From positions 1 through 34,976 of the forward strand of contig JBHLPW010000051.1 in assembly GCA_048939015.1 (NCBI GenBank): a stretch of 34,976 nt of DNA, written 5' to 3'. Made by a program: the position numbers and the translations under genes. A model generated the notes under the pieces. That model did not search any database, was not told the DNA's origin, and was given only the letters and a program-made list of their open reading frames with translations. Below, piece by piece: positions 19,989 to 24,548 of the stretch. The DNA comes from Promethearchaeota archaeon (GTDB taxonomy: Archaea; Asgardarchaeota; Lokiarchaeia; Sigyniarchaeales; SOKP01). Numbering within the stretch: the stretch's first letter is position 1; the number at the start of each line of letters is the position of its first letter.

Positions 19989-22349
19989 ATGAATAAACGA
20001 ATTAAGAAACTAAGAAAACAAAGTCGTGAAGCTATTCCGTATCTTTCCTTGGAACGTGCGTTATTAATAACAGAATTCTATGAGACTGGAACAGCCCATA
20101 TTTATACTCCTCCAGTTGCTAGAGCAAAAGCATTTAAGTATATCTTAGAAAATAAGAGAATTTGCATTAATGATGATGAGTTAATAGTTGGCGAACGAGG
20201 TCCAGAACCAAAAGCAACGCCTACATATCCAGAGGTATGTTGCCATAGTCTACATGATTTAGATGTTCTACACACACGCGATAAAATTTCTTTTAAGGTA
20301 ACTGAAGATACAAGACAAAAGACAGCAAATAAAATTATTCCCTTTTGGAAAGGCAGATCTATTCGTGATAAAATCTTCTCAAAAGTAGATGAAACATGGA
20401 TTAATGCATATGAAGCTGGTATTTTCACAGAGTTTATGGAACAGAGAGCGCCTGGGCATACTGTTGCTGGAAAGAACATATGGAATAAAGGTTTTTTAGG
20501 ATTTAAAAAAAATATTACTGAAAGCATAGAACAGTTAGATTTTTACAATGATCCTGAAGCTTATAATAAAAGAGAACAATTAATTGCCATGAATATTGCT
20601 GCTGATGCAATTATTGCTTTTGCTGAACGCCACGCTCAAGAGGCTAAATATTTAGCCAATATGGAGTTAGATCCTAAAAGAAAAGGTGAATTAGATAAAA
20701 TATCTGAGATATGTTCCCGTGTTCCTGCTCACGCCCCTAAGACTTTTTGGGAAGCACTCCAACACTATTGGTTCATTCATTTAGGCGTCATAACTGAATA
20801 TAATACATGGGACTCATTCAATCCAGGACGTTTAGACCAACACCTTTTTCCCTTCTTTAAAAATGATATAGAAAAAGGAATATTATCTAAGGATGAAGCA
20901 TATGAATTACTTCAAGCTTTTTGGGTGAAATTTAATAATCAACCCGCACCACCAAAGGTAGGTGTTACTGCTGAAGAAAGTAATACTTATACCGATTTTT
21001 GTAATATTAACTTAGGTGGTCTTGAAGATGATGGTTCCAATGCAGTTAATGAAATGTCCTATATACTCTTAGATGTTATTCAAGAAATGAGGATTTTACA
21101 ACCGAGTAGTAACGTTCAAATTAGCGTGAAAACACCTGATAGATTTTTAAAAAGAGCTCTTGAAATAGTTAAAACTGGCTTTGGACAACCATCAGTTTTC
21201 AATTGTGATGCTATAATTCAGGAATTGACCAGACAGGGTAAATCGATAATAGATGCCAGAAACGGTGGAGCAAGTGGTTGTGTTGAATCTGGTGCTTTTG
21301 GAAAAGAAGCATATATACTAACGGGATATTTTAATCTTGTGAAAATTTTGGAAGTAACTCTTCATAATGGTTTTGATCCTCTAACTAAGAAACAGATTGG
21401 GTTAAAGACGGGTGATCCTATCACATTTAAATTATTCGATGATTTTTTAGAAGCTTATAGGAAACAAGTGAATCATTTTGTAGATATAAAAATTAAAGGA
21501 AATCAAATAATTGAACAAATCTGGTCGCAAAATCCAGCACCTTTTTTATCAATATTAATTGATGATTGTATTAAAAAGGGAAAGGATTATAATAGCGGAG
21601 GAGCAAAATACAACACATCTTATATACAAATTGTGGGAATGGGTAGCATAACCGATTGTTTAACTTCTATAAAATATAATATATATGACAAAAAAATTAT
21701 CTCTATGGAAGATCTTCTGAAAGCGTTAGATAATAATTTTAAAGGTTATGATGTTTTACATCAGAAATTAGTTTATAAAACTCCTAAATATGGGAATGAT
21801 GACAATTATGCTGATTCCATTACGACCCAAGTTTTTAATATAGCTTATAATGCTATTGATAATCGTCCTAATACAAAAGGTGGTGTGCATCGTATTAATC
21901 TACTTCCTACTACTGTGCACATATACTTTGGTCAAGTAACTGGAGCTACACCAGATGGACGCATAGCTTTTAGTCCCTTATCTGAAGGCATCTCCCCAGT
22001 TCAGGGAATGGATATTAATGGCCCAACTGCAGTTATTAAATCTGCTGGGAAAATTGATCATTTAAGAACTGGTGGAACTCTATTAAATCAAAAATTCACC
22101 CCTCAATATTTTTCCGATGAAGAGAGGATTGATAACCTAGCTCACTTAATTAGAACATATTTCGAAATGAATGGTCATCATATACAATTTAATGTAGTTT
22201 CAGCAGATACCTTACGAGCTGCACAATCAAATCCAGAAAAATATAGAGATCTAATTGTACGAGTTGCCGGATATAGCGATTATTTTGTGAATTTAGGAAA
22301 GGAATTACAAGAAGAAATTATTAGAAGAACTGAGCATATTGCAATATAG
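19989..22349 (+). CDS. hypD: Glycyl radical enzyme, trans-4-hydroxy-L-proline dehydratase type
   Basis: RVAGYS glycyl loop, SGCVE cysteine loop; HypD-like motifs FTEFMEQRAPGH, NNQPAPPKVG..EES.TYTDF, GKEAYILTGY, LPTT.H.YFG. Confidence 0.85.
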   Translation: MNKRIKKLRKQSREAIPYLSLERALLITEFYETGTAHIYTPPVARAKAFKYILENKRICINDDELIVGERGPEPKATPTYPEVCCHSLHDLDVLHTRDKISFKVTEDTRQKTANKIIPFWKGRSIRDKIFSKVDETWINAYEAGIFTEFMEQRAPGHTVAGKNIWNKGFLGFKKNITESIEQLDFYNDPEAYNKREQLIAMNIAADAIIAFAERHAQEAKYLANMELDPKRKGELDKISEICSRVPAHAPKTFWEALQHYWFIHLGVITEYNTWDSFNPGRLDQHLFPFFKNDIEKGILSKDEAYELLQAFWVKFNNQPAPPKVGVTAEESNTYTDFCNINLGGLEDDGSNAVNEMSYILLDVIQEMRILQPSSNVQISVKTPDRFLKRALEIVKTGFGQPSVFNCDAIIQELTRQGKSIIDARNGGASGCVESGAFGKEAYILTGYFNLVKILEVTLHNGFDPLTKKQIGLKTGDPITFKLFDDFLEAYRKQVNHFVDIKIKGNQIIEQIWSQNPAPFLSILIDDCIKKGKDYNSGGAKYNTSYIQIVGMGSITDCLTSIKYNIYDKKIISMEDLLKALDNNFKGYDVLHQKLVYKTPKYGNDDNYADSITTQVFNIAYNAIDNRPNTKGGVHRINLLPTTVHIYFGQVTGATPDGRIAFSPLSEGISPVQGMDINGPTAVIKSAGKIDHLRTGGTLLNQKFTPQYFSDEERIDNLAHLIRTYFEMNGHHIQFNVVSADTLRAAQSNPEKYRDLIVRVAGYSDYFVNLGKELQEEIIRRTEHIAI

Positions 22350-22458
22350 CAATTCTTTTTCATATATTTTAAGCAATTAGTTCTATTTTCAATTGTGCAA
22401 ATTATTAAAATGCCAATTTTAAGGATTAGAAACTTTTTTCTTTTATCCTACATATATG

Positions 22459-22531
22459 TGTACATATTCAGTACATAGATTTATAAATGATAATTTCTTT
22501 TTTATTCTTATATGTACATGATCAGTACATA
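22459..22531 (+). promoter_or_regulatory. Promoter with TATA box (TTTATAAA 22480-22487) flanked by two 19-bp direct repeats TGTACATnnTCAGTACATA (22459-22477, 22513-22531); candidate operators
   Basis: 17/19 identical copies 54 bp apart; each has two GTACAT half-sites 11 bp apart; RBS GAGGTGA at 22543-22549. Confidence 0.7.
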
Positions 22532-22556
22532 TATAAAAAAAAGAGGTGATAAGATA

Positions 22557-23330
22557 ATGAGTAAAGAGAATTATGAGGAAATGATTAAGATTATAGTTAT
22601 TGGGGCTGCAGGAGTGGGTAAAACCGCATTAATTGAAAGTTTTTCCGATAAATCTCTATACAAAGATACAGCTCCAAAAACTGGTGTGAATTTATTTATT
22701 AAGAAAGTAAATATTGAGGGTAATGACTATAAACTTCAGTTTTGGGATATTGTTGATGATGACAAATTTGGATCACTTCAAACAATATACTACACAGGGG
22801 CCTCTGTTGTTCTTTATATATTTGATTTATCTAGACCCGAAACTTTTGATTATTTTCAAACACGTTTTAAGGATATTTGGACACAGGTTAAACAAGACAA
22901 GTGCCCTGTACTTGTAATTGGAAATAGACTTGATTTAGTCGAAAACCCAGAAATTATTGATAGAGAAAAATATCGTAATTTTGTGAAAGATGAAGGTTTA
23001 ATAGGTTATATTGAATTGAACTCAACAAACAATATTGATAGTCTAATAAACCAACTCCCTATTATTATTCAAAAAGCTTTAAAAAAGAGTATTCAAGTCA
23101 AATTTCTAGTCACTAGTAAAGAACTTGAAGAAATTAAAAGATTTGCTAAACGTTCTCATCAAACACAATCGGAATTTATTCGTACCGCAATATGGGAAAA
23201 AATTAAATCGATAAATTCACCCTCAAAAACTGAGAACTCATTAAAAGAAGAACTTCTAAAAGAAATATTAAGGTTAGAAGAATTGAAAAAAATTCGAGAA
23301 TTATTAGAAAGACAAGAAAAATTAAAGTAG
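22557..23330 (+). CDS. Rab-like small GTPase domain fused to a C-terminal ribbon-helix-helix (CopG/Arc/MetJ-like) domain and short coiled coil
   Basis: G1 GAAGVGKT, LQFWD, YYTGA, GNRLD; RHH pattern IQVKFLVTSKELEEIKRFAKRSHQTQSEFIRTAIWEKI at 23091-23204; RBS supports ATG 22557. Confidence 0.82.
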   Translation: MSKENYEEMIKIIVIGAAGVGKTALIESFSDKSLYKDTAPKTGVNLFIKKVNIEGNDYKLQFWDIVDDDKFGSLQTIYYTGASVVLYIFDLSRPETFDYFQTRFKDIWTQVKQDKCPVLVIGNRLDLVENPEIIDREKYRNFVKDEGLIGYIELNSTNNIDSLINQLPIIIQKALKKSIQVKFLVTSKELEEIKRFAKRSHQTQSEFIRTAIWEKIKSINSPSKTENSLKEELLKEILRLEELKKIRELLERQEKLK

Positions 23331-23356
23331 CCGAAAAGAATTTTATTTTTCAAGAA

Positions 23357-23372
23357 TTTTTCTTTTTTTTTT
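23357..23372 (+). terminator. Oligo-T terminator after the GTPase-RHH gene
   Basis: TTTTTCTTTTTTTTTT about 27 nt after the stop. Confidence 0.5.
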
Positions 23373-23477
23373 CTATCTTTTTCTATTTAATAATATATAT
23401 ATTCATAGAGTTTATTATGGAAATGTACAATCGGAATAACATAATTCAACAACACTATTAAGAATATAAGAAGATAA

Positions 23478-24548
23478 ATGAGTTTCGATTCAGATTTAAA
23501 TAAAGACAATCTTATTGATAACATTCCTGTCGACGAACGGTCGTACAACGCATTAATTCAATTATTGAAAAAAAAAACTGGATTAAATTTTAAATATTAT
23601 AATAGGAAATTTATAGAAAAACGTATAAAATCCCGAATGATAAGGGTTCCTTGTAAGACTCTTAATGACTATTATGATTATATCTCATCCAATAATGCTG
23701 AAGTCAAAAAATTTATAGATGGATTTACTGTAAATTATACTTTCTTTTTTCGCGATTATGATGTTTTCGAGACAATCCAAGATCTGTTTATGCAAGGTCT
23801 ACAAGTAAGTAGAAAAGATATCAAAAGTAGTATTAGACCCGATCCTACTAAACGAGCAAAATTTATGACAAAATCAAACGCAGTTAAAAATCTACACAAA
23901 AACCGTTATTTATCAGAAAAACCAGCAAAATTTTATATTGATATCTTTATTTTTCTTAATCAGCTCTCATATTATCAGAAAATGAAACATCCGAAAAGCG
24001 ATGGTAATTGTATTAATATATGGTCTTGTCCTTGTGCTACTGGAGAAGAACCATATTCCTTAGCAATGATCCTTGATAATCTTGAGACGCAAGTTCCACA
24101 ATTTCCAAATTATAAAATTGTAGCATCTGATATTGCTCATGAAGCTATTGAAAAAGCTAAAGTGGGTGTGTATACTGATGATTCAATGAAAGAAATTTCT
24201 GATTACTACGAAAACAAGTATTTCAAAAAAGAAAAAACACATTTTGGTTATAGAAATATAATAAGTGATAAAATTAAAAAAAAAATTGAATTTGTAGAAG
24301 AAGATATTACACAAGGGCATTGCAAACCCAACTACTATGATATTATCTTCTGTAGATACCTTTTAATATATTTCAATAGAGAAAACCGACATAAATTTTT
24401 AAAAATAATAGAAAATCGATTAGTTGAAAATGGAATTCTAATTTTAGGGAAAACCGAAACATTATTTGATTCTTGGGGTAATTTAAAATTAATAGATACT
24501 AACAATCGTATCTATATTAAATCTCGTTCCAAATTATATAGTAAATAA
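23478..24548 (+). CDS. cheR: CheR-family protein-glutamate O-methyltransferase with an internal insertion
   Basis: TVNYTFFFRD, IWSCPCATGEEPYSLAM, ASDI, YDIIFCRYLLIYF, LILGKTE. Confidence 0.88.
   Translation: MSFDSDLNKDNLIDNIPVDERSYNALIQLLKKKTGLNFKYYNRKFIEKRIKSRMIRVPCKTLNDYYDYISSNNAEVKKFIDGFTVNYTFFFRDYDVFETIQDLFMQGLQVSRKDIKSSIRPDPTKRAKFMTKSNAVKNLHKNRYLSEKPAKFYIDIFIFLNQLSYYQKMKHPKSDGNCINIWSCPCATGEEPYSLAMILDNLETQVPQFPNYKIVASDIAHEAIEKAKVGVYTDDSMKEISDYYENKYFKKEKTHFGYRNIISDKIKKKIEFVEEDITQGHCKPNYYDIIFCRYLLIYFNRENRHKFLKIIENRLVENGILILGKTETLFDSWGNLKLIDTNNRIYIKSRSKLYSK

Follow-up and report, generated by a model that had tools for sequence, protein, structure and literature searches.

The window analysed here, i.e. 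the whole stretch of 34,976 nucleotides from one contig of a Lokiarchaeia-type Asgard archaeon (genome of 4.86 Mb, 29.8% GC), carries on its forward strand a gene, P0001 (22557..23330), that was delineated with Pfam and 12 full-length orthologues and encodes a protein of 257 amino acids in which a Ras-like G domain is joined through a linker to a C-terminal RHH domain. Homologues of this protein are labelled in public records only as 'Rab family GTPase' or 'GTP-binding protein', the taxon given there being Lokiarchaeota or Promethearchaeota. The gene on the 5' side of P0001 encodes a glycyl-radical enzyme; the next gene, encoding a CheR-type methyltransferase (window positions 23478-24548), lies 148 nt on the 3' side. 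This gap and the long T-tracts within it (23345-23375) suggest that P0001 and the CheR-type gene belong to separate transcripts. Across species the three genes keep this order (glycyl-radical enzyme, RHH gene, CheR-like gene), and the CheR-type gene follows the RHH gene in the genomes G000 (that of the window), G002 and G024 (L043 2577-2912; L044 1960-2301).

Upstream of P0001 two 19-bp boxes are placed on either side of a TATA box: box 1, TGTACATATTCAGTACATA, at 22459..22477 (+), and box 2, TGTACATGATCAGTACATA, at 22513..22531 (+). The TATA box itself, TTTATAAAT, is found at 22480..22488 (+), with its core TTTATAAA at 22480-22487, and TATA-like variants of it occur in all loci that were compared. 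Each box contains two GTAC sub-sites (22460-22463 and 22471-22474 in box 1; 22514-22517 and 22525-22528 in box 2), belonging to GTACAT half-sites that start at 22460 and 22471, and at 22514 and 22525, so that they are 11 bp apart in each box. Box 1 covers the BRE position just 5' of the TATA box, from which it is separated by a 2-nt gap, and in the source genome box 2 begins 25 nt 3' of the TATA box. The start-to-start offset of the two boxes is 54 bp, and a repeat finder extends the duplication to 36 nt with 78% identity at this same offset. Re-reading of positions 22200-22800 found the coordinates that the initial annotation had given for both boxes, the TATA box, the half-sites and the 54-bp offset to be exact. 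A further TACAT unit that it had pointed out at 22449 (22449..22453, +) is present as well and stands in phase, 11 bp 5' of the first GTACAT, but this degenerate unit is specific to the source genome and is not conserved in the 12 orthologous upstream regions. The boxes are directional: with a 19-nt weight matrix made from 54 related boxes they score 28-30 bits in the forward and 11-13 bits in the reverse orientation. The 7-nt spacer inside the boxes (wTrwTCr) is also conserved and, over 27 loci, differs consistently between them, being of the TATTC type in box 1 and of the TGATC/TAATC type in box 2. This directionality and the conserved spacer are not fully explained by a simple pair of symmetric dimers.

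Between box 2 and the coding sequence lies an A-rich leader, followed by the Shine-Dalgarno sequence GAGGTGA (22543..22549, +), which is conserved in the orthologues and stands 7 nt 5' of the equally conserved start ATGAGTAAAGAG. The mechanical list of open reading frames takes an ATG within box 2 (22512) as the beginning. Because the orthologous leaders carry insertions and deletions while the Shine-Dalgarno sequence and ATGAGTAAAGAG are conserved, the ATG at 22557, and not the in-frame ATG at 22512, is the true start codon as judged from this comparison. For a Lokiarchaeia-type Asgard host, whose genome encodes a TBP gene (and gives 65 small-GTPase matches), a TATA/BRE promoter is the right frame of reference; a bacterial promoter and terminator scan is uninformative for an archaeon. 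Archaeal TATA boxes are placed about 26-28 nt 5' of the transcription start (PMC8553660). From this distance the start is expected near 22509-22513 (+), and box 2 would then span about +1 to +20. The genome-wide profile of TATA positions shows only a weak enrichment 30-100 nt 5' of start codons.

The Ras-like G domain takes up residues 11-159 (22587..23033, +; Pfam Ras, E 3.5e-26; AlphaFold2 pLDDT 80-92) and has an intact P-loop, GAAGVGKT, together with an NKxD-like motif (NRLD). Its G3 motif reads FWDIVDD, without the Gly and the catalytic Gln of DxxGQ, and is conserved as such in the clade (consensus FWDIIDxxKF); from this motif the domain may be a slow or non-hydrolysing switch. The RHH domain follows at residues 176-219 (23082..23213, +), with the strand QVKFLVT and helices at 187-199 and 204-219, and a long helix closes the protein at residues 230-256 (23244..23324, +; AlphaFold2). 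In Pfam, full-length P0001 matches the NikA-like family with an E-value of 4e-7, above the cut-off of that family, with DUF6290 and RHH_1 as weaker matches, while the isolated RHH domain matches NikA-like at E 2.8e-8 and 34 bits (cut-off 27). Among 27 family members the matches amount to 26 for NikA-like, 24 for DUF6290 and 8 for RHH_1. AlphaFold2 models built on family alignments give an extended segment at 180-186 and two helices, with pLDDT above 90 in the core, the RHH strand being unpaired in these monomer models. A Foldseek search with the RHH model returned as top matches only RHH proteins (AtaR, CopG, Arc, ORF56, TacA, PutA, AmrZ), with rmsd values of 1.0-1.5 A over 40-45 residues and target TM-scores of 0.75-0.93; the small size of the domain keeps the E-values weak (0.1-0.5). 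When the RHH alignment was run as a sequence profile against the PDB, only chance matches came back (ribosomal protein S15, Csy4), hence the need for fold comparison. The RHH call for the C-terminal domain, first made from the sequence of the window, is thus borne out by Pfam, AlphaFold2 and Foldseek. Invariant residues of the RHH domain are Q180, K182 and F183 in the strand, and F207, I208 and R209; in the C-terminal helix E242, L243, I246, R247 and L250 are invariant. In the models this helix is a candidate coiled coil that may join dimers into higher oligomers.

Full-length orthologues of P0001 (57-85% protein identity) were found in 12 congeneric genomes. The initial annotation had proposed a motif search upstream of orthologues, and in all 12 first examined the motif is kept, together with the whole layout of box 1, TATA box and box 2. 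Mean pairwise identity over the 13 genomes reaches 93% in box 1, 87% in the TATA box and 86% in box 2, as compared to 42% far upstream, 44% just 5' of box 1 and 55% in the 5' leader, and insertions and deletions among these genomes fall only outside the boxes. On this alignment there is a clear phylogenetic footprint over the boxes and the TATA box. In 27 loci, every box places its GTAC units at a distance of exactly 11 bp, and the gap from box 1 to the TATA box is 1-6 nt across loci. The start-to-start spacing of the boxes in these 27 loci varies more widely: 52 bp (12 loci), 53 bp (5), 50 bp (3), 51 bp (2), 54 bp (2), and 37, 40 and 58 bp (1 locus each). Of the helical phasing put forward earlier, the 11 bp inside the box are therefore invariant, but the five-turn distance from box to box is not universal (37-58 bp): a spacing of about five turns holds in the GTPase clade and not in the whole family, and with a spacing that varies in this way box-to-box cooperation is not supported as a conserved feature. 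Outside the operator proper a moderately conserved element, AATTTTAAGGATTAGAAAC followed by a T-run (22415..22440, +), lies about 20-45 nt 5' of box 1, with 65% identity as compared to 42-44% in its flanks, and persists in genomes with another upstream gene; it might terminate transcription of the glycyl-radical enzyme gene or serve as an additional regulatory site.

In effect, the source genome contains this operator only once. Allowing at most one mismatch, GTACAT-N5-GTACAT has 2 matches in the window where 0.03 would be expected, and the exact pattern has only 2 matches in the 4.86-Mb genome, which are the two boxes. The shorter pattern GTAC-N7-GTAC occurs at 12 sites genome-wide, the other 10 of which all lie within open frames of at least 387 aa. 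With the 19-nt matrix box 2 scores 29.9 bits and box 1 28.4 bits; the next-best site in the genome scores 16.3 bits (best extra match C116:20100, within a small coding sequence). Between genes the matrix gives one weak match only, G000:C25:288 (ATGTACAAAATTGGTAAAT; 13.8 bits), about 200 nt 5' of a 330-aa open reading frame; it is probably due to chance, and whole-genome scans gave no second intergenic site beyond it. A genome-wide scan had been proposed earlier as a way to define a regulon; exact, one-mismatch and matrix scans of the whole genome, and the spectrum of GTAC-GTAC distances, revealed no regulon. GTAC pairs at 11 bp show no genome-wide excess (12 pairs, similar to other distances). 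Avoidance of GTAC as a restriction-site effect was considered and rejected, the ratio of observed to expected tetramers being 0.99.

The association of the boxes with the RHH domain was followed through the 154 species-representative genomes of the order. The RHH domain, with an 84-aa query, was found in 44 genomes. The twin pattern GTAC-N7-GTAC-N15-45-GTAC-N7-GTAC was found in 34, at one place in each, as compared to 2 of the 154 for the reversed pattern that served as control. All but one of the 34 twin sites (33/34) lie upstream of a gene that carries a P0001-type RHH domain. For 31 of the 34 the genome has an RHH match and the site is directly upstream of that gene. The twin site in G139 precedes a GTPase-RHH gene in which 100 N hide the RHH core, the one in G102 precedes an LRR-RHH gene split over two contigs, and the one at G051:C449 lies inside a coding frame, as expected of a chance match. 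The protein behind the boxes is variable in its N-terminal part. In G017 and G024 it is an LRR protein of 423-428 aa that ends in the same RHH domain (54-56% identity), with the same twin boxes and at the same syntenic position after a glycyl-radical enzyme gene; in G002 and G099, likewise at this position, short proteins (a 179-aa frame and 152 aa, respectively) consist of linker and RHH only, the boxes being kept. GTPase-linker-RHH forms of 317 aa and a member from another genus (g22) retain the GTAC spacing of 11 / 41-42 / 11. In G012, where the RHH domain is 48% identical, the box flanks are changed (TTGTACCAAATTTGTACTA) and GTAC-N7-GTAC is kept, TTTATAAA again following after 2 nt. Only one box is present in members of three further genera, where it abuts a TATA-like sequence in loci L056 and L058. 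In another family (G026; L046, ~1091-1150) five GTAC units with an exact 11-bp period, located between a TATA-like sequence and a Shine-Dalgarno sequence, accompany a stand-alone small RHH homologue. Since the boxes are retained across N-terminal swaps, the invariant is GTAC every 11 bp beside the core promoter of an RHH gene, and by this survey the N-terminal domain is irrelevant to the association. No GTAC box was found within 240 nt of one GTPase-RHH gene with the same beta-strand (L060, g12), which may share a transcript with the preceding gene.

The LRR sister genes, which share the twin boxes, the linker and the RHH domain and have an LRR where P0001 has its GTPase, are those of L042 (1060-2346, -), L043 (1176-2447, +), L053, L054, L064, L065 and L069. 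A small open reading frame or a long leader (~150-200 nt) is found between the boxes and the LRR gene in L053, L054 and L069. In ROCO proteins the two N-terminal modules are an LRR and a Roc-type GTPase.

With the 12 orthologues, the 33 of 34 twin sites and the domain swaps in its favour, the earlier proposal that the boxes are an operator for the gene's own RHH domain has gained support, and we hold it probable (at roughly 0.8) that they form a dedicated operator of the C-terminal RHH domain of this gene, an autoregulatory and probably a repressor site. RHH proteins bind as dimers and enter the major groove with a two-stranded antiparallel sheet. Physical binding, its stoichiometry, the start site, the sign of regulation and control by nucleotide state we infer along the following lines. 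Each GTAC tetramer, itself palindromic, would be the centre of a sub-site for one RHH dimer, and two sub-sites 11 bp apart would bring two dimers to the same face of the DNA, as with Arc/Mnt, four RHH dimers being expected on the four GTAC sub-sites. Occupancy of box 1, over the BRE, would hinder the binding of TFB and TBP, and occupancy of box 2, over the predicted start, would hinder the loading of RNA polymerase; with both boxes occupied the outcome would be negative autoregulation. The conserved C-terminal helix may link dimers, and the N-terminal G domain (the LRR in the sister genes) is a likely input that would tune DNA binding. RHH proteins, including SvtR of an archaeal virus, are known to repress their own promoters and to bind multiple sites cooperatively (PMC5569661). 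Going one step further, the protein could be a one-component G-protein transcription factor in which the nucleotide state of the Ras-like domain, or the ligand state of the LRR, gates the RHH domain at a private GTAC operator, an extension that we put forward tentatively and consider possible, if somewhat doubtful.

Three other accounts of the boxes have to be weighed against self-repression. If the operator is real and the RHH protein activates its own promoter, or both activates and represses it, recruitment of TFB/TBP would fall to box 1, and repression at high occupancy to box 2. Box 1 indeed lies just 5' of the TATA box, immediately upstream of which archaeal activators such as Ptr2 act. 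The single box of the three distant homologues, found just 5' of the TATA-like sequence in L056 and L058, and the consistent difference between the two spacers (TATTC versus TGATC/TAATC) would also suit activation. Box 1, however, overlaps the BRE position rather than preceding the BRE, with a gap to the TATA box of 1-6 nt; in L046 and L059 the units stand between TATA and Shine-Dalgarno sequence; and the RHH autoregulators that have been characterised are repressors. Activation thus appears unlikely. Quite different is the suggestion that box 2 acts in the RNA, where it would form a hairpin of the 5'-UTR (UAUAUGUAC / GUACAUAUA) and govern translation or stability, with box 1 as an incidental duplicate. 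The leader does fold (9 bp, -8.2 kcal/mol, z-score -2.5), and one outer pair changes on both sides among the orthologues. Of 13 orthologues, however, 10 leave the pair beside the GUAC stem open, and no variation at all is seen at four pairs; box 1, although it repeats the sequence, sits 5' of the TATA box, and the five phased GTAC units of L046 cannot form one hairpin. Rfam gave no match. With its stem interrupted in most orthologues, the hairpin reading is weak, and we set it aside as highly improbable.

As the gene and the boxes always adjoin, their co-occurrence does not formally distinguish the gene's own product from another factor as the binder. The boxes might be bound by a different, unlinked transcription factor, the RHH domain having its site elsewhere or binding some other partner than this DNA: adjacency alone is no proof of self-binding, and no other RHH target was found in the genome, an unusual result where a sensor domain is part of the regulator. 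An unlinked factor is nevertheless very unlikely, since the boxes stay with the RHH domain when the N-terminal domain, the synteny (G006/G008, G012), the genus or the family changes. Moreover, no boxes were found in the 110 genomes without an RHH match, except for G139 with its N-masked core, and a single site per genome agrees with local self-regulation. Three classes of known RHH proteins were likewise considered for P0001 and rejected. An antitoxin of a type II toxin-antitoxin system (AtaR/ParD/TacA-like) would call for an adjacent, co-transcribed toxin gene, but the neighbours are the glycyl-radical enzyme gene and, 148 nt away behind T-tracts, the CheR-type gene, and no toxin family was found. 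A relaxosome protein of the NikA/MobC kind, to which the best Pfam match belongs, would be expected on a mobile element beside a relaxase and oriT; this disagrees with the metabolic neighbours, with a chromosomal gene order shared between species and with the finding of no relaxase among the eight neighbouring proteins scanned. A centromere binder such as ParG or omega, which goes with a ParA-type partner and a long repeat array, does not agree with two boxes around a TATA box and no ParA-like gene among the neighbours scanned.

An autoregulatory RHH operator of the kind preferred here has close parallels in Arc and Mnt of phage P22, whose 21-bp operators hold two sub-sites about 11 bp apart (centre to centre) and bind a dimer of dimers on one face of the DNA. 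The likeness extends to the RHH fold, with the Arc chains 1par and 1bdv among the Foldseek matches (17-19% sequence similarity of Arc to the P0001 RHH in the structural alignment), and to an operator that overlaps the promoter under control, here a predicted one. The differences are that the promoter is of the archaeal TATA/BRE type, that the core is GTAC, that two operators flank the TATA box, and that the RHH domain is C-terminal in a protein of 257 aa, behind a Ras-like G domain. CopG of pMV158 shares the fold (1ea4, 1b01 and 2cpg are among the top Foldseek matches, rmsd 1.4 A); its dimers are phased along one face of ~50 bp over its own promoter, in negative autoregulation. Whereas CopG, with 45 aa, is a stand-alone plasmid protein whose promoter is of the bacterial sigma-70 type, the present case has four GTAC units in two boxes around a chromosomal TATA box, and a protein with a sensor-type domain. 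RHH domains that have a ligand-sensing or enzymatic module attached, or are under its control, are found in NikR, MetJ, PutA and HicB (the PutA RHH chains 2ay0, 2gpe and 2rbf are Foldseek matches), and HicB and ParG show that the RHH domain can sit C-terminally; unlike in NikR, MetJ, PutA and HicB, the partner here is a Ras-superfamily small GTPase that is interchangeable with an LRR. Archaeal RHH proteins are represented by SvtR (SIRV1) and ORF56 (pRN1; chains 3ft7 and 2k9i are Foldseek matches), which occupy their own promoters and repress them in competition with TBP/TFB (PMC5569661). Both are small proteins of Sulfolobales viruses or plasmids with imperfect inverted-repeat sites, as opposed to a chromosomal Asgard gene with 11-bp phased GTAC units, fused to a GTPase or an LRR.

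The operator geometry, with 11-bp phased sub-sites and promoter occlusion, is textbook RHH, and the novelty is therefore in the context and not in the mechanism. What appears unusual is a chromosomal Asgard fusion of a Ras-like GTPase (or an LRR) to an RHH domain with an apparently single, private target. In the full-text literature that was searched we found no description of a GTPase-RHH fusion, of a fused RHH domain that is interchangeable between GTPase and LRR partners, or of a Ras-superfamily GTPase wired directly to a TATA promoter, nor any mapped promoter or operator in Lokiarchaeia, for which the present locus is a candidate. Asgard archaea have dozens of Ras-like GTPases, which are usually discussed for membrane and cytoskeleton biology; to our knowledge, their functions are almost entirely unknown. 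If the RHH domain is gated as suggested, a eukaryote-like small-GTPase switch would be wired straight to an archaeal TATA promoter. For this sub-family the output domain and the DNA target can be named from sequence, the target being a 19-bp box that has no other locus in the genome and is conserved across 30 species, and with output and target named a clean biochemical test of an Asgard small GTPase becomes possible. The natural swaps of GTPase, LRR and no N-terminal domain before the same RHH and operator are ready-made controls.

A few related loci depart from the common pattern. L061 (G113, strand QITFWL) and L062 (G059, strand QMTFLV) have T in place of K182 in the strand and lack GTAC boxes. 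L061 shows instead three TATAG units at an 11-bp period, and L062 has GTAT-N7-TAAC where its congener L059 (QIKFLV) has GTAC-N7-GTAC. Protein and operator may have co-varied in L061 and L062, an observation to be taken as a lead and not as a test. A weaker paralogous RHH family, with the strand VVHIAF or MVHIAFL, was encountered at L063 (G078:C79) and L047 (G000:C76:74247-74471), the latter being a copy in the window's own genome. In G078 the 3' end of a tRNA-like sequence directly precedes the L063 copy, a hint that an integrated element may be involved.
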